DNA of 64,000 nucleotides from Thermodesulfobacteriota bacterium (GCA_034716155.1 JAYEFR010000082.1:427-64426), one strand, 5' to 3'; counted from the first letter of the stretch, positions 3,557 through 32,745 are shown. Translations and numbers: made by a program. The notes: a model not told the origin generated them from the letters alone.

Positions 3557-5275
3557 TTACAAATCAAAGGTCTTATCCATGTCTTCGTCACTGATGAGAA
3601 AAATCTTATTGTGAGGGGGTAAGGCCTCTTTATAATAGAACTCCGGCAGGCGATCGTCCTTGTTTGTAAACCCTGCTTTACGGTTGAAGTCCAGCTCTGC
3701 CTGCAACACTTTTACGCCGATACCATTGATGGCATCCATATTATATTGGGTGCCGAGCTTGGCATTTATCATATTAACAAATGCCTCCATAACCTCGGGC
3801 ACAGCAAGCACTGAAGCCGCAAGGAGACAAAGCCCCATGCTGTCTATCATTGCTCCTGCTATCTGGGCCTTTCGGCTGGCCTCAACCTGGCCGCCTGTTT
3901 CCAATGGGTTAAGCGCTCCTCCCACATAGTCTTCAAGCAGGCCTCCTGCTGTGTGGTCCGCACCCATGGGAGAGGTGGCATATGTAACGCCATAACCCTG
4001 CATTCCTCTTGGATCGTAGGCTGACAGGCTCTGTCCCTTGACTGCGGGCACGCGGTGATGGTTCAGATGTTTGCCAACAGCAACAGGACCGTTACCAAAA
4101 ATTTTGCCTGTTTCAGAACATTTACCAATTTCCTCAATCATCTCGATAGCAGCCCGGCCATCTCCGAATTTCTTGTATCCCGCATCCATGGCCACGGCAA
4201 TAGCCACGCCTGTGTTTATGGTATCGATGCCAATATCATCACAGAGAAAGTCCAGCCTGGCAATCACATCCAGGTCATTAATATCGGTCATGCTCCCCAT
4301 GGACCATATCGTCTCATACTCTAAAGATCCGGTCACATACTTGCCCTGCTTATCCACAAACTGATTGGAGCAATGAATAGCACACTGGGAACACCCCCTG
4401 TGGCCTGTCTTACCCCCACGCTCCTGGATAACCCTGGCCAGTTCTTCACCGCTTATCTTTTCCCAGCCATCCATAACGCCTTTGGTTGCATTTAAGCTCG
4501 GAAAGGCACCCATGGAGTTTACTATCCCTATCAACACAGCGGTACCAAGAGAAGACAGCATCTGGCCGCAGAAAAGATCACCTTTTATTGCCTTGGCAAA
4601 GACTGCAGCCGCTTTTCTGAAGGCCTCCGGATCAGCTGGTGCGTCAGCGTTCTTTCCGCCCTGATCAACAACCAGGGCCTTCAACCCCTTTGCCCCCATG
4701 ACCGCGCCGAGGCCACCACGAGCCGCAGCCCTACAGGGGTAGCCATCAACATCAGAAGACTGGATTGAGGCTGATGCCAGTTGATACTCCCCAGCAGGGC
4801 CTATACACAGCACAGCGTTATTATCCCCATAGGTCTTAAACAGCCTTTCTGCAAGGGCATATGTCCTCATCCCTTTACAGTCCTGAGCAAGGTCAAGGCT
4901 TGCTGCGCTATCTTTATCGATCTTGAGGATGTACAGCTCTCCATCAAGTACCTTTCCCTCAACAATCACCGCTGTAATGCCTAAGTTACCCATGGCTGCC
5001 CCCACTGTTCCACCCGCATTGCTCTCCTTTATTGTCCCAGTCAGCGGGCTTTTCGCACCTATTGAAATCCTGCTGGTATTGACAAGGATTGTCCCGCTTA
5101 AGAGACCAGGGGCAAAGATGAGTTTGTTTTCCGGCCCAAGGGGATCACATTTGGCAGGCACCTCGGCATTGATCATTGCTGATGTAAGCCCTCTGCCACC
5201 AAGCCCGATGTACTCCTTAGGCACATCTTCTACGCTCACGGCCTTCTCTGTCATGTTCACCCTTAAAAATTTCAT
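3557..5275 (-). CDS. aor: Aldehyde:ferredoxin oxidoreductase (tungsten-containing AOR family)
   Basis: 572 aa; N-terminal MKFLRVNMTEKAVSVEDVPKEY...GGRGL and overall composition match the AOR family (N-terminal AFOR_N plus C-terminal cofactor-binding domains). Confidence 0.85.
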   Translation of the reverse strand: MKFLRVNMTEKAVSVEDVPKEYIGLGGRGLTSAMINAEVPAKCDPLGPENKLIFAPGLLSGTILVNTSRISIGAKSPLTGTIKESNAGGTVGAAMGNLGITAVIVEGKVLDGELYILKIDKDSAASLDLAQDCKGMRTYALAERLFKTYGDNNAVLCIGPAGEYQLASASIQSSDVDGYPCRAAARGGLGAVMGAKGLKALVVDQGGKNADAPADPEAFRKAAAVFAKAIKGDLFCGQMLSSLGTAVLIGIVNSMGAFPSLNATKGVMDGWEKISGEELARVIQERGGKTGHRGCSQCAIHCSNQFVDKQGKYVTGSLEYETIWSMGSMTDINDLDVIARLDFLCDDIGIDTINTGVAIAVAMDAGYKKFGDGRAAIEMIEEIGKCSETGKIFGNGPVAVGKHLNHHRVPAVKGQSLSAYDPRGMQGYGVTYATSPMGADHTAGGLLEDYVGGALNPLETGGQVEASRKAQIAGAMIDSMGLCLLAASVLAVPEVMEAFVNMINAKLGTQYNMDAINGIGVKVLQAELDFNRKAGFTNKDDRLPEFYYKEALPPHNKIFLISDEDMDKTFDL

Positions 5276-5321
5276 ACTTTTCTCCTTTCAAAGTTAAAAT
5301 GTTTGATCTTAACTCAACCTC

Positions 5322-6581
5322 TTATCCATCCCCGTCCGTTAAGAATTCCGGCCTTTGATAGGCCGGGGTTGGATATGCGTAGAATCCCTTGCCTGTCTTT
5401 TTACCCAACTCCCCACGCTCAACATAGGGCCGCAGGAAACCTGCGATCTCTTCTGGATTCCCAAACTGATATACCCACATCCCTGATGGTTCGTTGAGAC
5501 CCTCCAAAAAATCGTCTAATCCCTTGTTATCCAACATGCCAAATGGCCCTGTAGTAACGTTTTGACCTGCCATCCACGCCCGATCCACATCATCCACGTC
5601 TGCATATCCGTCAACAACTAACATTATGGCATTACATGCCAGAGAGCCAAAAAGTACATCATGAAGATGCCCACCATCTTCCATTCCTTTCAGAAAATCA
5701 GACTCTTGATAGGCAGGGCTTGGATATAAGTAGAGTCCCTTGCCCGTCTTGACACCCAACTCCCCACGCTCAACATAGGGCCGCAGGAAACCTGCGATCT
5801 TTTTGGCCCACACCTCCCAAACCCTATCCAGGTTCTCTGCCATCATACTGTCATATACAACATTCAACCCCACGTAGTCCATCATGCCAAAGGGTCCTAT
5901 CCAGTGTTTTTGTCCTGCCATCCAAGCCCTGTCTATTGCTTTAACACCCCCCCGGCCCCTGATAACCAACAGCAGCGAAGCTGCAAAAACCCCGCCTAGC
6001 ATCGAATTATAGAGGTAGCCGGGCTTTTCTCTTTTGAGCACGAGCGGGATACACCCCAGGCTTAAGACATAACGCTTGAGAATATCGATGGTCTCAGGAG
6101 ATGTCCGCTCTCCACCCACAATGTCGACCAGGCCTGATCCAAGGTGGGAATGCAGGGCTGCAAACCGGTCAGAGCGCGTCACGGCCTTTTCTATCTCGGA
6201 TACAGGTAGTCCTGATGTATTAGTGGTCATAATCGTCTTAGGCGGGCATAATGCGTCAAACTGTTTGTGGACCTTGCGCTTCAATTCCAGTCGCTCAGAC
6301 ACGGATTCGCTCAAAAGATCGGCATCTTCGGCGGCCTGCACAGGGTCTGAAACCAGGGATACACGGGACATACCCGCATCAACCAGGCCCTGATCAAAAA
6401 TCTTGTTATCAACCATATAGGCACCTGCTTCTTTTTGACGCTGGAATACCTGGCTTAGTGCTTCAGCAGAAACGTCATAAATCAGTGCATTATAACCGCC
6501 AATACCGCTGAGCAATGAATTAACACAACCCATGGTACCAGCCCCCACGAAGCAGACCGTCTTTATCTCTTTAATAGGCAT
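5322..6581 (-). CDS. 3-hydroxyacyl-CoA dehydrogenase with duplicated C-terminal (3HCDH_C) domain
   Basis: N-terminal Rossmann motif VCFVGAGTMG; two C-terminal copies of a ...IAGFLRPYVERGELG(V/K)KTGKG(L/F)Y(L/A)YP... segment. Confidence 0.8.
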   Translation of the reverse strand: MPIKEIKTVCFVGAGTMGCVNSLLSGIGGYNALIYDVSAEALSQVFQRQKEAGAYMVDNKIFDQGLVDAGMSRVSLVSDPVQAAEDADLLSESVSERLELKRKVHKQFDALCPPKTIMTTNTSGLPVSEIEKAVTRSDRFAALHSHLGSGLVDIVGGERTSPETIDILKRYVLSLGCIPLVLKREKPGYLYNSMLGGVFAASLLLVIRGRGGVKAIDRAWMAGQKHWIGPFGMMDYVGLNVVYDSMMAENLDRVWEVWAKKIAGFLRPYVERGELGVKTGKGLYLYPSPAYQESDFLKGMEDGGHLHDVLFGSLACNAIMLVVDGYADVDDVDRAWMAGQNVTTGPFGMLDNKGLDDFLEGLNEPSGMWVYQFGNPEEIAGFLRPYVERGELGKKTGKGFYAYPTPAYQRPEFLTDGDG

Positions 6582-6610
6582 AAGAATCCCCTATCCTTAA
6601 AGTCAATCTT

Positions 6611-15633: not shown

Positions 15634-16542
15634 TTATTTCATTAACGGTGCGGAAAGCACATAGACATCTGCGCCTGTCTGGTAAGGTTTTGCATTTTCA
15701 ATGCTTTTTATCTTTTCAAACTCATCCCTTACCTCTTCGGCCAAGACATCCCTTTTGGCATCTCCAATACAAACACCTTCTCCGGAAACGATTGCAGTGC
15801 GGGCAAACCAGCCACCACTCATGGTGAATATCATGCCGGATTCCTGGTTCTCCTCGGAACAGAGATATACCACCATAGGCACATTAAATTTAGGCTTTAC
15901 CTTCGCTGCGAATTCCGGGGGGAAGACACCTTTTGTCATCCTTGAATCTGCATTTGGTGCAACTGTATTTACCTTGATATTGTATTTAGCTACTTCAAGT
16001 TTCAGGACATTCATCAACCCCACCATGCCCATCTTGGCCGCGCCATAGTTTGTCTGGCCAAAATTTCCGTAAAGCCCGGACGTTGAGACTGTAAAGACGA
16101 CCCTCCCGTATCCATTTTCTCTCATTATTTTAACTGCCGGCTGCGTAACACAGAAGGCGCCTTTTAAATGAACGGCAATAACCTGATCCCAATCATCCTC
16201 TCTCATCTTAAGAAATGATTTGTCTCTCAAGATCCCGGCGTTGCTGACAAGGATATCTACCTTGCCGAACGTATCAACAGCGGTCTTTACGATATTTTCA
16301 CCGCCTTGTATGGTTGAAACAGAATCGTAATTCGCTACGGCCTCGCCGCCTGCCGCTTTTATTTCTTCAACTACAACATCTGCTGCATTCCGGCTGGAAC
16401 CCGAACCATCCAGTGCACTACCAAGGTCATTGACAACGACCCTTGCTCCCCTTTTTGCCAGATCCAGCGCATACTCTCTGCCAAGTCCTCCACCTGCACC
16501 GGTTATGATTGCCACCCTTCCGTCAAAATCTAACTTAGACAT
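15634..16542 (-). CDS. Short-chain dehydrogenase/reductase (MFE-2-type 3-hydroxyacyl-CoA dehydrogenase-like)
   Basis: SDR motif TGAGGGLGR near the N-terminus; paired with the MaoC gene like a split multifunctional enzyme 2. Confidence 0.8.
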   Translation of the reverse strand: MSKLDFDGRVAIITGAGGGLGREYALDLAKRGARVVVNDLGSALDGSGSSRNAADVVVEEIKAAGGEAVANYDSVSTIQGGENIVKTAVDTFGKVDILVSNAGILRDKSFLKMREDDWDQVIAVHLKGAFCVTQPAVKIMRENGYGRVVFTVSTSGLYGNFGQTNYGAAKMGMVGLMNVLKLEVAKYNIKVNTVAPNADSRMTKGVFPPEFAAKVKPKFNVPMVVYLCSEENQESGMIFTMSGGWFARTAIVSGEGVCIGDAKRDVLAEEVRDEFEKIKSIENAKPYQTGADVYVLSAPLMK

Positions 16543-28533: not shown

Positions 28534-28848
28534 TTATTTTGTCTCTTCTTCAATCCACTCCAGAAACTTAGCATTCCCGCCTAAGATTGGCAGAACCACT
28601 ATACATGGGCACGAGTATGAGTGCATCTGCCTTACCTTCTCAACCAATTCAGGTACCAGATTCTCCTTTGTCTTTGCAATAAGGATGGCTTCGCTGTCGT
28701 CCTGAATCTCTCCCTCCCACCAGTACATGGAATTCATATTGTCTATGATATTGACACATGCAGCCAACCTGGTCTCGACCAATTCCTTGCCGATCCTTCT
28801 TGCTTCATCTTTATCCTTTGTGGTTACGTAGATGATATTTAGTTTCAT
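28534..28848 (-). CDS. cutA: Divalent-cation tolerance protein CutA
   Basis: 104 aa; ...YVTTKDKDEARRIGKELVETRLAACVNII... matches the CutA1 family. Confidence 0.85.
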   Translation of the reverse strand: MKLNIIYVTTKDKDEARRIGKELVETRLAACVNIIDNMNSMYWWEGEIQDDSEAILIAKTKENLVPELVEKVRQMHSYSCPCIVVLPILGGNAKFLEWIEEETK

Positions 28849-28965: not shown

Positions 28966-31900
28966 CTATTCAAGATCAAGATTGATAGTTTCTTTCTCTA
29001 CTTCAGGATACACCTTGTCAATTGCCTTCTGAACTTCAATTGTTTTTTTAAGGGATGTAACAACCTTGCAGTAATGTTTTATATCCTCAAGGGATAGCAC
29101 CTTATCCTTTCTATCTTTCAGCCATTTACTGCAAACTTGATACCCACCGATCTGATATTCCCAGCAATCTTTCGGAATCCCTTCAAAATACTGGTTTTGA
29201 TTGATATAGATACATTCTTGCTTTTCATCATATCTTAACTTCTCGACCTTTTCGTCACCACTTCCCTGAAATTTGGCAAGGGGAGGATCAAGTTCTTGTG
29301 ATCTCAATAAATGCAAATCAACCAATTCTTTTCCATATTCAGCCATCCTGTTAAATATCTTGCAATCTCTTGTAAATGGAATTCTCGGGAAACCTCCCTT
29401 TAGAAACTCGGCATATTGAGTACGGTAGATATTCGAATAGAGAATTGCGTAGATGTAGTAGAAAATCTCTTCTGGTGTAATATTGGTAGAACAGACATTC
29501 TTGTCTGTTTCCTCTCTGTCTGTTTCTCCGTTGAAATACCAACCATGATACCCCCATGGACTTTCTGTTAATGCTCTTTTCACTGGATTATTCAGCATAT
29601 AATTCATTTTCTCGTTCAACTCGTTTTGATCCCTTATAATTCTATCAAAAGATTCCTCTTGCCAGATAGAGCCAGAAGTCCCCCTTTTTAAGTTGAGTTG
29701 TCGGGCTGATGCCCCCTTAATACCTCTCATTATTCTACTAAGATTATATTCTTCCTTCGGGGTCAACAAAAGATGAACATGATCTGGCATTACAATGGCT
29801 GCAATAAGTGTATAAAATTTTCCATTGCCCTCTATAATGTGTTTCAAAACCAGTTTCTGTTCCTCGATAGATAGATCTCCTTGGGCTGTTCTGAAAGTAA
29901 CAAAATATGTTGCATCCTTCAATGTCCAGTGTGGGAGATGTCTTCTTGTGATTTGAAGGTCATTGGTAGAACAGACATTTTTGTCTGTTTCCTCCAAGGT
30001 AGAACAGACATTTTTGTCTGTTTCCTCCAAATTAGTGTCAGACAAGAATGTCCGACCTACCGGACCTACCGCCGGACCTGCACTTTTACAAATGTCGGAT
30101 AACGCCTTGAAAATCTTTGGATTTATATTGGGTTGCCTTTTCTCTGCCTTTTCCATGTGGCCAATGAGCTCTTTCCTGTCTGTGTAGGGGTAGAGGTAGA
30201 GGGGAGCTAAGCTCATAATTCCTCTGTTGCTATAAAATGACCGATTGTCGATAATATTTTGGCTAATAAAAACATGGCTATATGTCTCATTTAATGCTAC
30301 CTGACGCATAAAGACAAGTCCTATATTCCCCTGCATCATGTGACGCATGACCTTTTTGCGTGAACGTTCAATAACTGCATCGTGATAGAAAATCCATCGA
30401 ATATCAAAGGGCCGATATAAAATCTTTGTGATAGAATCTCCCCATTTTTTATCCTTTCTCACCTCTTCTCGTGCAGCTTCCAATTTCCAGTTTGATTTAT
30501 CCTTTAACTCAAAGGTTTGTCTTACAAGGCCATCGGGCATATTTTTATCGCAGAAGGTCCTAATCCGCTGTTTAAGCTTTTCTTTATCAGAGTCTATTAC
30601 AAATTTGTCTCTTGATGTTACCACCCCCACACTATTAAGTGGAAATATCTCAGTTATTTTAGGCCATCTTTCATAATACTCTAAAAGCCTTTCATCCCTT
30701 GGCACAAAAAGATAAAATTCAGATTTTGGGGAGAGCTGATTCCATTCAATTGTTTCTACATTATTCTCTAAAAGCCACTCGTATTTATTTTCTCGCATCC
30801 CCCAAATCTCTGAATGATAGACCTTGCATTCGCTCTTTTTCTCTTGATTTTTTATACAGAGTGCAATGGCTACACCCTGCTGGATGTCAAAGACATTTTC
30901 ATCCTTAGAGCCGTCAGGGCTCTTCTCTTTTTTCAGGCTATTGCCGTGTAGATCAAGAATATAGATTTCATTGAAACTGTTCATCACTGATTGGCGCATA
31001 CCTCTAAAGGTGGGATTATCAAGATAGCTATGATTGGTAATATATCCTAATACTCCTTCACCTGCCTGATCAATCTTCCACTGGGCAAACCGGATGAATT
31101 TCACATAATCGTCCTGAAGCCATTTTGGATTCTTTTCTCCAAGGGGTTTACCATCAACAAACTTGTAATCCCCAATAAGCTTTCCTATCCACGTTTTTAT
31201 CTTTCTTCTCTTTGCTATACCCTTTTTTGTTTTTATTGTGATGTACCTTTCACTTGCATTTGCAGAATGCCCTGAATACGGCGGATTGCCGAGGATTACC
31301 AGTATAGGCTGTTCCTTTTTAACTTTACCAGCCAGATGAGATTCCTCAGAAAGAGATGCCATAAACGGCAACCCTGTTTCAGCAAGTTCCTCCATCTCCA
31401 ATGTATTGGTGAGGTATAGTTTGAATCTGTCATCTTCTTTGAGTCTATACCCAAGCTCTTCTAAGAGAAAAGACATCTTCAAATAGCCCACTGCATAGGG
31501 AGCCATCATCAACTCAAAGGCATAAAAATTCTTAAGGATATGTTCTTTAATAAAATTCCCTTCCCCCCCTTCGCCATATTTAAAGACAAATTCCTCAACT
31601 GCCTGTTTTGCTGCCTCAGCTAGAAAGGTGAGGGTGCCTGCTGCTGGATCTAATACAGTAACCGAGCTGATTGCAAATCCCTCCCGTTTATCAAAGTGCT
31701 GCTTCAAGATGTGATGCAAAGAACGGACAATATAGGATACCACTGATTCTGGCGTATAATAGACACCTCTTTTCTCTCTTGTCTTTGGGTCATATTCGGC
31801 CAAAAAGGTCTCATAGAAATGAACAATAGGATCTTTGCCCCTTCCTTCATGAAAATACGTATGGAGAATTTCATTTACATCAGTAACCGCTAAGACCTCG

Positions 31901-32745
31901 GATATATCATCTATAATCCACTCCATTTGTTTGGGTAAGTCTTCAAGGGAGACAAAACTGAATACATCTCGTAAGATCCCAATAGTGTGTGGAATGTTGT
32001 CGTATGCAAGTTTTCTATTAAATCCATTTTCAGAGCGGGTACGGGCAGCAAAGAGACCATAGGTAATGGTCTGGGAATAGAGATCGGCAAACTCTTCTTT
32101 AGAAAGAGTACCAATAAGATATTTCCTGAATGCCTCATAAAATCCAAAGATGTGACCTTTTCCTTCCTCTTCTTTTAACTCCTGAGCAATGACTTCATCC
32201 TTTAAAAAACGTGTCCTCTTTGCCAATTCTATTGCCAAAGTTTTCGCACTATAGACCTTTGGAAGAGAAAAGGAGAAAAACTTTTCAAGCAATTTGATAA
32301 AATCTGCCTGTTTTTCAACAGGAGGTATCATTTTAAGTTTTTGTGCAACAAATGGCCTGCCGATGAGGACTTGATCTGCCAGGGTGCCATCACGATACAG
32401 CCTAAACTCAAAGAAATTGGTTAGTATCAGATTGGGGAAAGTTTTGCGATAGCGTTTTAACTGCTCGGAATTTTCTATCCTGTCTAAATTCTCAACCATT
32501 GGTGATTTTGCTTCAATGTATCCAACAATATGCTGGGTTCCGTCCCAGACTCTGAAATCAGGATTGCCGGCTTCGGTCTTTTTTGGCAAGATTGTAATAT
32601 AAATATTCCTTTTGCCGACTGAATCTGAATATTCTTTTAATAGACCTTTGAGGACAGAATAATAACTTTCTTCCCTTGCATCCCCCCGAGTTGCAATCTC
32701 AGATATTTTTCTCAAATACGACTTTAGCATCATGTCTTCTTTCAC
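28966..32745 (-). CDS. Single-polypeptide type IIG/IIL (MmeI-like) restriction-modification enzyme, carrying an in-frame RAYT/IS200-like transposase insertion in its C-terminal region
   Basis: 1259-aa continuous ORF. N-terminus has a PD-(D/E)xK-like motif NPDFRVW...IVGYIEAKS. Gamma-class N6-adenine MTase motifs follow: YYTPESVV, VLDPAAGTLTFL (motif I) and ILGNPPYSG (motif IV). The C-terminal ...EEIFYYIYAILYSNIYRTQYAEFLKGGFPRIPF... module is typical of large type IIG/PglX-like MTases. The aa ~850-1040 insert has Y1 HuH motifs (see mobile_element). Confidence 0.7.
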   Translation of the reverse strand: MKEDMMLKSYLRKISEIATRGDAREESYYSVLKGLLKEYSDSVGKRNIYITILPKKTEAGNPDFRVWDGTQHIVGYIEAKSPMVENLDRIENSEQLKRYRKTFPNLILTNFFEFRLYRDGTLADQVLIGRPFVAQKLKMIPPVEKQADFIKLLEKFFSFSLPKVYSAKTLAIELAKRTRFLKDEVIAQELKEEEGKGHIFGFYEAFRKYLIGTLSKEEFADLYSQTITYGLFAARTRSENGFNRKLAYDNIPHTIGILRDVFSFVSLEDLPKQMEWIIDDISEVLAVTDVNEILHTYFHEGRGKDPIVHFYETFLAEYDPKTREKRGVYYTPESVVSYIVRSLHHILKQHFDKREGFAISSVTVLDPAAGTLTFLAEAAKQAVEEFVFKYGEGGEGNFIKEHILKNFYAFELMMAPYAVGYLKMSFLLEELGYRLKEDDRFKLYLTNTLEMEELAETGLPFMASLSEESHLAGKVKKEQPILVILGNPPYSGHSANASERYITIKTKKGIAKRRKIKTWIGKLIGDYKFVDGKPLGEKNPKWLQDDYVKFIRFAQWKIDQAGEGVLGYITNHSYLDNPTFRGMRQSVMNSFNEIYILDLHGNSLKKEKSPDGSKDENVFDIQQGVAIALCIKNQEKKSECKVYHSEIWGMRENKYEWLLENNVETIEWNQLSPKSEFYLFVPRDERLLEYYERWPKITEIFPLNSVGVVTSRDKFVIDSDKEKLKQRIRTFCDKNMPDGLVRQTFELKDKSNWKLEAAREEVRKDKKWGDSITKILYRPFDIRWIFYHDAVIERSRKKVMRHMMQGNIGLVFMRQVALNETYSHVFISQNIIDNRSFYSNRGIMSLAPLYLYPYTDRKELIGHMEKAEKRQPNINPKIFKALSDICKSAGPAVGPVGRTFLSDTNLEETDKNVCSTLEETDKNVCSTNDLQITRRHLPHWTLKDATYFVTFRTAQGDLSIEEQKLVLKHIIEGNGKFYTLIAAIVMPDHVHLLLTPKEEYNLSRIMRGIKGASARQLNLKRGTSGSIWQEESFDRIIRDQNELNEKMNYMLNNPVKRALTESPWGYHGWYFNGETDREETDKNVCSTNITPEEIFYYIYAILYSNIYRTQYAEFLKGGFPRIPFTRDCKIFNRMAEYGKELVDLHLLRSQELDPPLAKFQGSGDEKVEKLRYDEKQECIYINQNQYFEGIPKDCWEYQIGGYQVCSKWLKDRKDKVLSLEDIKHYCKVVTSLKKTIEVQKAIDKVYPEVEKETINLDLE
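29485..30030 (-). mobile_element. RAYT/IS200-IS605-family Y1 (HuH) transposase module flanked by GTAG-hairpin REP sequences, inserted in-frame inside the RM gene
   Basis: Hairpin GGTAGAACAGACAttcttGTCTGTTTCCTC at 29485-29515, followed by a partial reiteration through ~29530. Tandem copies GGTAGAACAGACAtttttGTCTGTTTCCTCCAA sit at 29965-29996 and 29998-30029. Between them the translation RRHLPHWTLKDATYFVTFRT...IVMPDHVHLLLTP...RGTSGSIWQEESFDRIIRD...NYMLNNPVKRAL carries Y1 transposase hallmarks (HuH = HVH, Q..F.D/R.IR, Y...NPV). No ATG start of its own; each hairpin is translated as (E)ETDKNVCST(N) within the host ORF. Confidence 0.7.

Follow-up and report, generated by a model that had tools for sequence, protein, structure and literature searches.

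The window analysed here is a stretch of 64,000 nucleotides (nt) from a Thermodesulfobacteriota bacterium (GCA_034716155.1, JAYEFR010000082.1:427-64426). On its minus strand lies a gene for a single-chain restriction-modification (RM) enzyme resembling the Type IIL enzymes DrdV and MmeI, and within the reading frame of this gene lies a REP-associated tyrosine transposase (RAYT) together with its repetitive extragenic palindromic (REP) hairpins, that is, a REPtron. A first-pass annotation made from the sequence alone had proposed such a module, in frame and in the same orientation as an MmeI-like RM gene and without an ATG of its own, and the evidence from domains, structure and repeats bears this out. 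The features are collected in Table 1.

The RM gene and the inserted cassette

The host open reading frame (ORF) extends over 1,259 amino acids (aa) with no internal stop and thus reads through the element as had been claimed, and an identical protein (P0001) is on record from a Thermodesulfobacteriota metagenome-assembled genome (MAG) at NCBI. Both the ORF call and the NCBI record place the start at the GTG at 32745 (MKEDMMLKSYL); since the homologues all begin with MLKSYL, the ATG at 32730 is probably the true start. The MmeI-like identity of the host is confirmed, as among solved structures the Type IIL enzyme DrdV (7LO5/7LVV, E 8e-48, a match covering aa 306-1030 of the uninterrupted homologue P0007) comes closest to the uninterrupted host family, followed by LlaGI and LlaBIII. 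The order of nuclease, helical connector, gamma-class N6-adenine methyltransferase (MTase, with NPPY) and target-recognition domain (TRD) is shared with DrdV and MmeI, and the fold matches 7LO5/7LVV, 5FFJ and 4XQK. The nuclease motif D63...E78-A-K80 is intact and near-invariant across 13 homologues, the alignment of the N-terminal nuclease to DrdV being weak by itself (4.6 bits); MTase motifs I (DPAAGTLTF) and IV (NPPY) are both intact, with N6_Mtase of Pfam matching at aa 304-495 and MmeI_Mtase and Eco57I matching weakly. No helicase or ATPase family was found in Pfam or NCBIfam scans of the host protein. A Type ISP enzyme such as LlaGI or LlaBIII was considered and rejected, there being no RecA-like ATPase or translocase, and length and alignment fitting DrdV and not the ISP enzymes of 1,400-1,580 aa. 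Judged from this domain content, the label MmeI-like or Type IIL is right for the host, and the name "type ISP" given by NCBI is loose because the host has no ATPase or helicase domain.

The insert occupies the linker that joins the DNA-reading part of the TRD to the C-terminal subdomain. Compared with uninterrupted homologues, it is exactly 600 nt long and stands in place of about three codons within a 30-residue stretch, with the junctions K|SAGP and CST|NIT; the empty site reads ..LSxxYK-KEP-TPEEIFYYIYA, and the PN-to-YIYA spacing is 30 residues in most of the uninterrupted proteins among the best 120 of more than 8,000 homologues. The Pfam family Type_ISP_C is matched in two stretches, the second at aa 1086-1238 (profile positions 184-339), with Y1_Tnp in between. 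In DrdV the TRD comprises residues 636-1029 and the base contacts end at K807 (bioRxiv 10.1101/2021.01.06.425610); unlike DrdV, the window enzyme has here a foreign domain of 200 aa, which aligns at DrdV residues about 838-840. Because this is beyond K807, the last base-contacting residue, the alignment places the insertion point past the part that determines specificity, where the C-terminal helical subdomain begins. The split profile, the DrdV alignment and the structural model with its Foldseek matches agree with the earlier view that the interruption falls at the boundary between the TRD and the FYYIYA...FPRIPF region. The alignment with uninterrupted homologues, which the first-pass annotation had recommended for finding the insertion point and any target-site signature, sets the former at aa 888-1087; as for the latter, the left junctions (TAC AAG|GTAGG, TAT AAA|GTGGG and TAC ACG|GTAGG, with extra codons in the window) show no conserved target motif.

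On the coding strand the cassette consists, in order, of REP4 (forward), the 33-nt tandem duplication of REP3 with REP2 (both reverse), the RAYT, and REP1 (reverse). On the minus strand there are three matches to the pattern GGAAACAGACAANNATGTCTGTTCTACC (29485-29512, 29965-29992 and 29998-30025), against none in 100 shuffles, and all three are translated as ETDKNVCST. These are the three hairpins described at first, and they are exact; a fourth REP, inverted (30039-30061, VGRTFLSD), had been missed. Taken on the minus strand, REP4 pairs with REP1-3 taken on the plus strand, the arms being 83-87% complementary. All four form hairpins with 8 bp in the stem and 4 nt in the loop, with folding energies of -7.2 to -8.0 kcal/mol and z from -3.3 to -4.2 (REP4 -8.0, z -4.2). 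With inverted GTAG-REPs on both sides of its RAYT, the cassette has the layout of a classical REPtron.

The transposase itself (aa 939-1066) matches the NCBIfam equivalog REP_Tyr_transpos NF047646 at 86 bits against a curated cut-off of 80, as well as Pfam Y1_Tnp, while the IS200 model gives 28.5 bits against 55, and so the profile check suggested for the Y1 core favours a RAYT. Its PDHVHLLL and MNYMLNNPVK align with lPeHmHc and vdYiyiNPVK of E. coli TnpAREP (4ER8), which agrees with the HVH reading of the HUH motif (H989-V-H991) and with the proposed Y1 helix (Y1049); the HUH motif and the catalytic Tyr are kept in all embedded RAYT copies. The embedded RAYT has the same frame and strand as the host. 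For its start, neither an in-frame ATG with a Shine-Dalgarno sequence nor a consistent start was found, there is no stop codon and the host ORF reads through, and a search for an internal promoter signal gave nothing above chance (9 sites against 12.3 expected). Neither a second RAYT nor a further REP was found outside the RM gene in the 64-kb window, just as had been stated for the REPs. That the RAYT is not a free-standing gene makes its context atypical and is no ground to exclude the domain from the RAYT family. With the classical REPtron (E. coli YafM-type TnpAREP, PDB 4ER8) it shares the HUH motif, the Tyr in a Y-x3-N-P-V helix and inverted GTAG-headed REPs on both sides. Unlike the classical form, however, it lies inside the frame of another protein without start or stop of its own, its REPs are translated as linkers, it is carried on an RM gene that appears horizontally mobile, and REPs more than 0.8 kb from the RAYT occur only in other loops of the same gene.

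Three other kinds of element were considered and rejected. The TnpA of IS200/IS605 insertion sequences has in common the HUH/Y1 fold acting on hairpins, but the window RAYT lies below the cut-off of NF033573 (28.5 bits against 55), and there are no TnpB, no left and right ends (LE/RE), no multicopy behaviour and no further copies in the window. As for an intein, no Hint or intein family is found in Pfam and no splicing residues at the junctions, and in the model disordered linkers surround an HUH fold. As for an IStron, there is no intron and no Rfam match in the window.

An AlphaFold2 (AF2) model of aa 640-1259, based on an alignment of 98 sequences, gave a predicted local distance difference test score (pLDDT) of 88-98 for the RAYT, below 50 for the REP-encoded stretches on either side and 87-97 for the C-terminal subdomain; the overall predicted TM-score (pTM) is 0.44 and the domain arrangement is not fixed by the model. 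Foldseek returned DrdV, LlaGI and LlaBIII for the host part, and for the insert TnpAREP 4ER8 (TM 0.68 on target) and then the transposases of IS200, IS608 and ISDra2. In the model the RAYT is a confident autonomous domain, and the flanking REP-encoded linkers are predicted to be disordered.

Table 1. Features of the host gene and the cassette (positions in the window)
Feature	Position	Strand	Basis or remark
Host RM gene, single-chain Type IIL, DrdV/MmeI-like	28966..32745	-	1,259 aa, insert included; ORF, Pfam, DrdV match
N-terminal PD-(D/E)XK nuclease motif, NPDFRV ... GYIEAK, aa 61-80	32506..32565	-	aligned with DrdV PDG...GYWESK
N6-adenine MTase domain, about aa 300-640	30826..31845	-	Pfam N6_Mtase, MmeI_Mtase, Eco57I
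MTase motif I, LDPAAGTLTF	31624-31653	-	
MTase motif IV, GNPPYSG	31270-31290	-	
DNA-reading part of TRD, Type_ISP_C profile positions 1-183, ends ...LSDICK (K887)	30085..30825	-	Pfam, DrdV alignment
Variable specificity module of TRD, about aa 800-887	within 30085..30825	-	module swaps between alleles
REPtron cassette, 600 nt, aa 888-1087, without start or stop codon	29485..30084	-	filled and empty sites compared, DNA and protein
REP4, inverted variant, GGTAGGTCGGACATTCTTGTCTG on minus strand at 30039-30061, translated (P)VGRTFLSD	30039..30070	-	duplicated GGTAGGTCC head; inverted-repeat pairs I1-I3
REP3, GTAG head on plus strand, translated ETDKNVCST	29998..30025	+	unit of the 33-nt tandem duplication
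REP2, identical to REP3	29965..29992	+	
RAYT core (HUH/Y1), aa 928-1074	29524..29964	-	NCBIfam, Pfam Y1_Tnp, 4ER8 sequence and fold
HUH motif H989-V-H991, PDHVHLLL	within 29764-29790	-	
Catalytic-Tyr helix MNYMLNNPVKRA, aa 1047-1058, Y1049	29572-29607	-	
REP1 (29485-29512) with adjoining half-REP remnant GAAACAGACAGAGAG, translated ETDREETDKNVCST	29485..29527	+	
C-terminal helical subdomain, Type_ISP_C positions 184-339, from NITPEEIFYYIYAILYSN...FPRIPF	28966..29484	-	Pfam, AF2
REP1-4, example single-stranded sequence GGTAGAACAGACATTCTTGTCTGTTTCC			

Recurrence, age and selection

The best 120 of more than 8,000 homologues comprise 113 uninterrupted proteins of ~1,050 aa and 7 with Y1_Tnp; the closest relatives of the window's host part (77-79% identity) are uninterrupted, and in the alignment the RAYT sits at exactly the same position in all 7 carriers. 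A profile search with the RAYT and C-domain added six fragments at contig ends (P0241-P0246), and a metagenome scan relying on RAYT motifs only added one more full-length carrier, L135, with a stop-free frame of 1,331 codons. The carriers come to at least 14 assemblies from NCBI, JGI, ENA and Logan, in about six lineages (P0001-5, P0008, P0084, P0241-6 and L135), and so the arrangement, at first thought very unusual, is commoner than assumed. The counts of embedded copies from the word-index protein search are lower bounds, as a RAYT query there gave stand-alone RAYTs only and missed the window's own protein and other long carriers. An assembly or binning artefact, in which repeats would have brought a RAYT locus and an RM gene together in one chimeric contig, is scarcely credible: REPs are indeed repeats and several related contigs end at the cassette, but the same junctions are found in independent assemblies from four sources and different assemblers, continuity at the codon level is seen at either junction, and the insert diverges along with the host.

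Two sub-lineages can be told apart among the embedded RAYTs. Members of the first, which includes the window, are 82-90% identical to each other; P0008, P0243 and P0245 make up the second, at about 67% identity to the first. Free-standing RAYTs (150-180 aa) show up to 81% identity to embedded copies. It had been pointed out at the outset that homologues containing the same segment as a conserved native domain would speak against an insertion. Homologues with the segment do exist, but the objection applies only superficially. Because more than 100 closer homologues are without the segment, REPs flank it and free-standing RAYTs reach 81% identity, the comparison indicates that it is the inserted gene of a mobile element.

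Three pairs of carriers are syntenic. L002 and L004, with common neighbours and 92.5% nt identity, differ by 10 internal indels of 3-63 nt, mostly REP units, all 10 of which are multiples of three; L001 and L132 are 73-81% identical in nt over the flanking genes and 86-90% over the RAYT; the window and L134 are 96% identical in nt and have the same DJ-1/PfpI gene downstream. On this synteny, the fused state is vertically inherited in these relatives. By the Nei-Gojobori method (NG86), the embedded RAYT has a ratio of nonsynonymous to synonymous rates (dN/dS) of 0.02-0.14, and the host C-domain one of 0.06-0.26. The carrier pair L002/L004 gives 0.17 (nuclease and connector), 0.03 (MTase) and 0.09 (TRD), and the uninterrupted pair L003/L009 has similar values. 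Between lineages the four-fold degenerate sites are near saturation and the RAYT proteins are still 83-87% identical, and within the first sub-lineage the RAYT dN is 0.05-0.08 against 0.12-0.22 for the host. As judged by these rates, purifying selection is strong on both the RAYT and the host.

These data bear directly on one reading of the first-pass annotation, a recent insertion which kept the frame by chance and left the RM enzyme inactivated or on the way to it, as an intact-looking pseudogene. At 200 aa the insert is large, a Pfam domain is split by it, and in the carrier P0244 the conserved YRTKYAEFLK motif has lost 5 aa, as such a reading would have it. The frame, on the other hand, is intact in at least 14 assemblies, synonymous sites are near saturation between carriers whose proteins are 83-87% identical, the dN/dS of the host domains in carriers equals that of uninterrupted alleles, and all indels are multiples of three. 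With the cassette kept in about six lineages and in syntenic relatives, and both partners under purifying selection, this reading is contradicted and was set aside as very improbable.

Translated REP hairpins

Other carrier alleles have REP peptides of the form VGQTFLSD/GQAFLPD in one orientation and TDKNVCPT in the other, and each orientation is always read in its single stop-free frame; between the two orientation types one pair is flipped (U-A to A-U), and this flip removes a TGA in the frame used. Besides the usual linker, other carriers have REPs at about aa 190, at about aa 645 after the MTase, near aa 1230 and within the RAYT, while REP-derived peptides occur in none of the 113 uninterrupted homologues. 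For the analysis of covariation, 56 units were chosen by head, 5' arm and loop only, one of which matched by chance; among the 55 genuine ones, 7-8 of the 8 stem pairs are present in 51. In the 41 distinct units, 96.3% of cells are paired, and 43 double changes fall at 4 of the 8 positions against 15.1 in shuffles (none of 500 shuffles as high). As the covariation indicates, the REPs keep their hairpins by compensatory change although they are translated. Their number changes fast, as L134, at 96% identity, is without the right-hand REP (36 nt) and one left tandem copy (33 nt).

In the carrier loci fetched first, 4-8 REP hairpins lie inside each RM gene, and the flanks, about 60 kb of the window included, gave one loose match to the REP pattern, which is probably due to chance. 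Because control loci of stand-alone RAYTs of this family show the same clustering, with REPs within 400 nt of the RAYT and rare in the flanks, the confinement of REPs to the RM gene would be partly a family trait and is less likely to be exceptional. In other genomes 126 of 153 REPs of this type, among the stretches listed, are outside long stop-free frames, i.e. mostly intergenic. The scan of genome contigs for the REP pattern gave, in genomes other than the window's, at least 120 stretches from many phyla, and among those listed a RAYT is nearby in 5 and the RM C-domain in none. A locus in a Verrucomicrobia MAG (L089, nt 4592-6605, minus strand) has five REPs of the family in a 671-aa stop-free frame with no Pfam match, either a REP array that is open by chance or another REP-riddled gene.

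Moreover, the free-standing members of the family often translate an upstream REP doublet as an N-terminal leader. In five stand-alone RAYTs (P0122, P0134, P0194, P0216 and P0228), in-frame REP peptides are seen in N-terminal leaders and internal loops, and therefore REPs invade the transposase gene itself. The same RAYT family is also found as a read-through C-terminal fusion to ThiD2-ThiE, a thiamine-phosphate synthase (L133 nt 998-1611; P0264, P0269, P0271, P0278, P0284 and P0384), where the two parts are joined by three translated REPs in tandem (VGQTFLSV x3), with an inverted REP of classical form past the stop codon. Because of this fusion and of the translated leaders, this RAYT family seems to make a habit of translatable REPs and of translational piggy-backing. 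In-frame intragenic repeats are known from the Rickettsia palindromic elements (RPEs) and from GTAG/CGTC REPs, with which the present case has in common palindromes that lie in frame and of which only those in stop-free frames survive; their hosts stay functional, and many are DNA-metabolism genes (PMC3733652). In contrast to these, here the transposase gene itself is in frame along with its REPs, and the whole unit is kept at one site across lineages.

Spread between RM alleles and the readings weighed

In a tree of 120 homologues based on the 843 columns upstream of the insert, the carriers are scattered with non-carriers as nearest neighbours, and a carrier clade has a bootstrap of 0%. In the first 84 columns downstream, the similarity among carriers is 0.75-0.84 against 0.66-0.73 to non-carriers (Mann-Whitney p 0.001-0.005 for each of 5 alleles), while the rank test on the N-terminal 760 columns gave no excess of carrier-carrier similarity; such a pattern is suggestive of co-conversion of the cassette with its downstream flank. 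In fact, to judge from the alignments, the RM family is visibly a recombination mosaic: the variable TRD module just upstream of the insert is 58-76% identical between alleles that are elsewhere 90-100% identical (L002 and L004, gene nt about 2400-2700), and an MTase indel (SEKYITI...KTW) differs between the near-identical L135 and P0005. The simplest history would be one or two ancient insertions, after which the cassette and adjacent host sequence spread by homologous recombination and horizontal transfer. The RM gene has a GC content of 0.38-0.41 against 0.44-0.48 in the flanking genes, and stands alone amid neighbours of housekeeping type which differ in every carrier lineage; its low GC content and differing neighbours are consistent with horizontal acquisition. 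The RM superfamily is present on 360 plasmid records.

Distant homologues, which were read as protein, were obtained by an index-free search of 1.84 billion cluster representatives with the window's RAYT and C-domain as query. In P0287 (1,545 aa) a RAYT of the same family, 54% identical, lies between MTase and TRD, and arrays of REP peptides stand at the usual linker and in other places. P0292, P0293 and P0296 carry in the same linker, a few residues before ..PE[DE][IV]F, a different and longer RAYT class (about 190 aa, 28-35% identical) with REP peptides of its own; P0286 has yet another RAYT, 38% identical, in a loop just upstream of the linker; in P0365 a class-c-like RAYT separates MTase motif X from motif I. 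The REP-derived peptides of these six distant carriers include AGWKPA, CGAGFQPA, GVPPVGHGLEAHAT and GATPRGMSV. Since within the first sub-lineage the RAYT evolves more slowly than the host, and the RAYTs compared here are 28-38% identical at a host identity of about 45-50%, we infer from the protein comparisons that these classes are independent acquisitions and not the outcome of co-divergence. In P0425 a DUF559 (PF04480) nuclease-like domain (aa 134-236) sits in the same linker between the halves of Type_ISP_C, and because of this the linker of the RM enzyme also accepts other inserted domains.

Active, site-specific homing, in which the single-strand cut-and-paste of the RAYT repeatedly targets this RM linker, would explain the same site on unrelated backbones and the identical position of two sub-lineages that are about 67% identical. 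It is favoured by the shared site in alleles which are polyphyletic in their N part, by free-standing RAYTs falling within the common clade of the two sub-lineages in the neighbour-joining (NJ) tree, by the distinct RAYT classes in one linker and by a synonymous rate (dS) lower in the RAYT than in the host; moreover, relatives in the IS200/IS605 group insert site-specifically and excise precisely. Against it, the left junctions have no conserved target motif, filled and empty sites differ by a small substitution besides the insertion, the residues co-inherited downstream speak for recombination, the best 120 of the more than 8,000 homologues include no empty allele above 79% identity to the window gene, and self-mobilisation of RAYTs has never been shown (PMC5581495). 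We judge homing unlikely. The inteins with homing endonucleases and the IStrons nevertheless resemble the present case, as a selfish nuclease gene lies at a conserved position in a conserved and widely shared host gene, the host is intact and the flanks are co-inherited; the difference is that here there is no Hint domain, splicing residue or intron, the insert would stay in the mature protein, and homing is hypothetical.

The explanation that we favour, as probable though well short of assured, is that a selfish REPtron is expressed as an internal domain of a mobile RM gene, which would be its vehicle. The REPtron would have landed in the linker between TRD and C-terminal subdomain and then resided there in frame, the RAYT being produced solely within the RM polypeptide, as an internal domain that folds autonomously, hangs on disordered REP-encoded linkers and is presumably still catalytically competent. 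The RM gene, horizontally mobile, plasmid-borne in relatives and hard to lose, would serve the element as expression platform and vehicle, and the element would pass between RM alleles mainly by homologous recombination of cassette and flanks. The enzyme would tolerate the insert owing to a permissive linker, and selection for an intact RM protein would filter the REP copies, of which only those in a stop-free frame and in surface loops would remain. Two options of the first-pass annotation, a fusion in which the transposase is expressed as a part of the RM protein and in no other form, and a selfish element with the RM gene as its safe haven, thus both survive and may be combined in one explanation.

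Several observations weigh against the vehicle explanation. In the NJ tree of the C part, the six alleles of the first sub-lineage are grouped together, with a bootstrap of 5.5% (29% without the window, 28-40% in the first half), all of the grouping signal being within the first half of the C-terminal region. In each of the 7 pairs for which it could be computed, the syntenic ones included, dS is lower for the RAYT than for the host C-domain next to it. Other RAYT classes (28-38% identical) and DUF559 are found in the same linker, and the same family at another loop; passive hitch-hiking covers a shared linker only by way of its permissiveness, and it could be targeted insertion or functional benefit instead. 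Internal initiation or proteolytic release of the RAYT is also possible, and the activity of the RAYT as an internal domain, like that of the RM enzyme with an insert of 200 aa, is putative.

Such a functional benefit is the core of another reading, in which the HUH/Y1 domain has been co-opted as a working part of the defence enzyme and is kept for the benefit of the RM system, be it as a second nuclease on single-stranded (ss) or hairpin DNA of invaders or as a REP-directed recombinase shuffling the TRD module. The strong purifying selection on the embedded RAYT, with HUH and Tyr intact across lineages, agrees with this, as do its long retention in syntenic genomes, the occupation of this linker in related enzymes by DUF559 and by other RAYT classes, and the position of the insert directly downstream of a variable TRD module that is swapped between near-identical alleles. 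However, TRD swapping is equally evident in alleles without a RAYT, the carriers are a small minority (7 in the best 120 of more than 8,000 homologues), the RAYT family is mostly free-standing and also fused to ThiE, which is unconnected with defence, and the REP hairpins are retained and covary, as expected if the relationship of RAYT and REP is maintained. Co-option of this kind therefore seems to us improbable.

A wider proposal, which we put forward tentatively and with some doubt, is that the single-chain RM genes of the DrdV/MmeI/Type_ISP_C superfamily are a dedicated niche which REP transposases have colonised repeatedly, at least three RAYT classes, all with REPs of their own, having entered them independently and in frame, in the same linker or neighbouring loops, with DUF559 in the same linker, and this would imply either targeted homing free of splicing or a functional partnership. 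If so, there would exist an unrecognised, targeted and splicing-free "homing" of RAYTs, or a tethered HUH domain working on RM-bound DNA; a partnership might consist, for example, in nicking of ssDNA or REP-guided shuffling of the adjacent specificity module.

RAYTs and REPtrons are well known (PMC5581495, PMC6006769), as are in-frame REPs and RPEs, and RAYTs have mostly been described as single-copy, stand-alone, vertically inherited and domesticated genes of which the maintenance and the role are open questions (PMC5581495). We found no description of a RAYT nested in an RM gene in the full-text literature, most subscription journals being outside the search. What would be new here is a REPtron with an intein-like lifestyle, in frame and resident in a host gene, with no splicing. 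If the vehicle explanation is true, hitch-hiking on another selfish or defensive gene would be a concrete route for the persistence and spread of RAYTs, a Y1 transposase could stay under selection inside another protein and provide a natural fusion for RAYT biochemistry, and Type IIL enzymes would have, just past the specificity module, a permissive and repeatedly used insertion point of use for engineering. For annotators there is a warning as well: earlier surveys dropped "unexpectedly long" RAYT proteins as fusions or errors (PMC6006769), and such proteins can be real.

The Rfam scan of the window gave no match, and a search for phage matches gave nothing meaningful. ARAGORN calls an 88-nt tRNA-Asp at 16381-16468 (minus strand) within a 302-aa ORF (15634-16542) with a GAGGGLG motif of short-chain-dehydrogenase type; no Rfam tRNA matches there, and the call is most likely a false positive. 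The 96%-identical L134 lacks at the syntenic position a 104-aa ORF, CutA-like as judged by sequence alone, which in the window (28534-28848, minus strand) stands between the RM gene and the DJ-1/PfpI gene.

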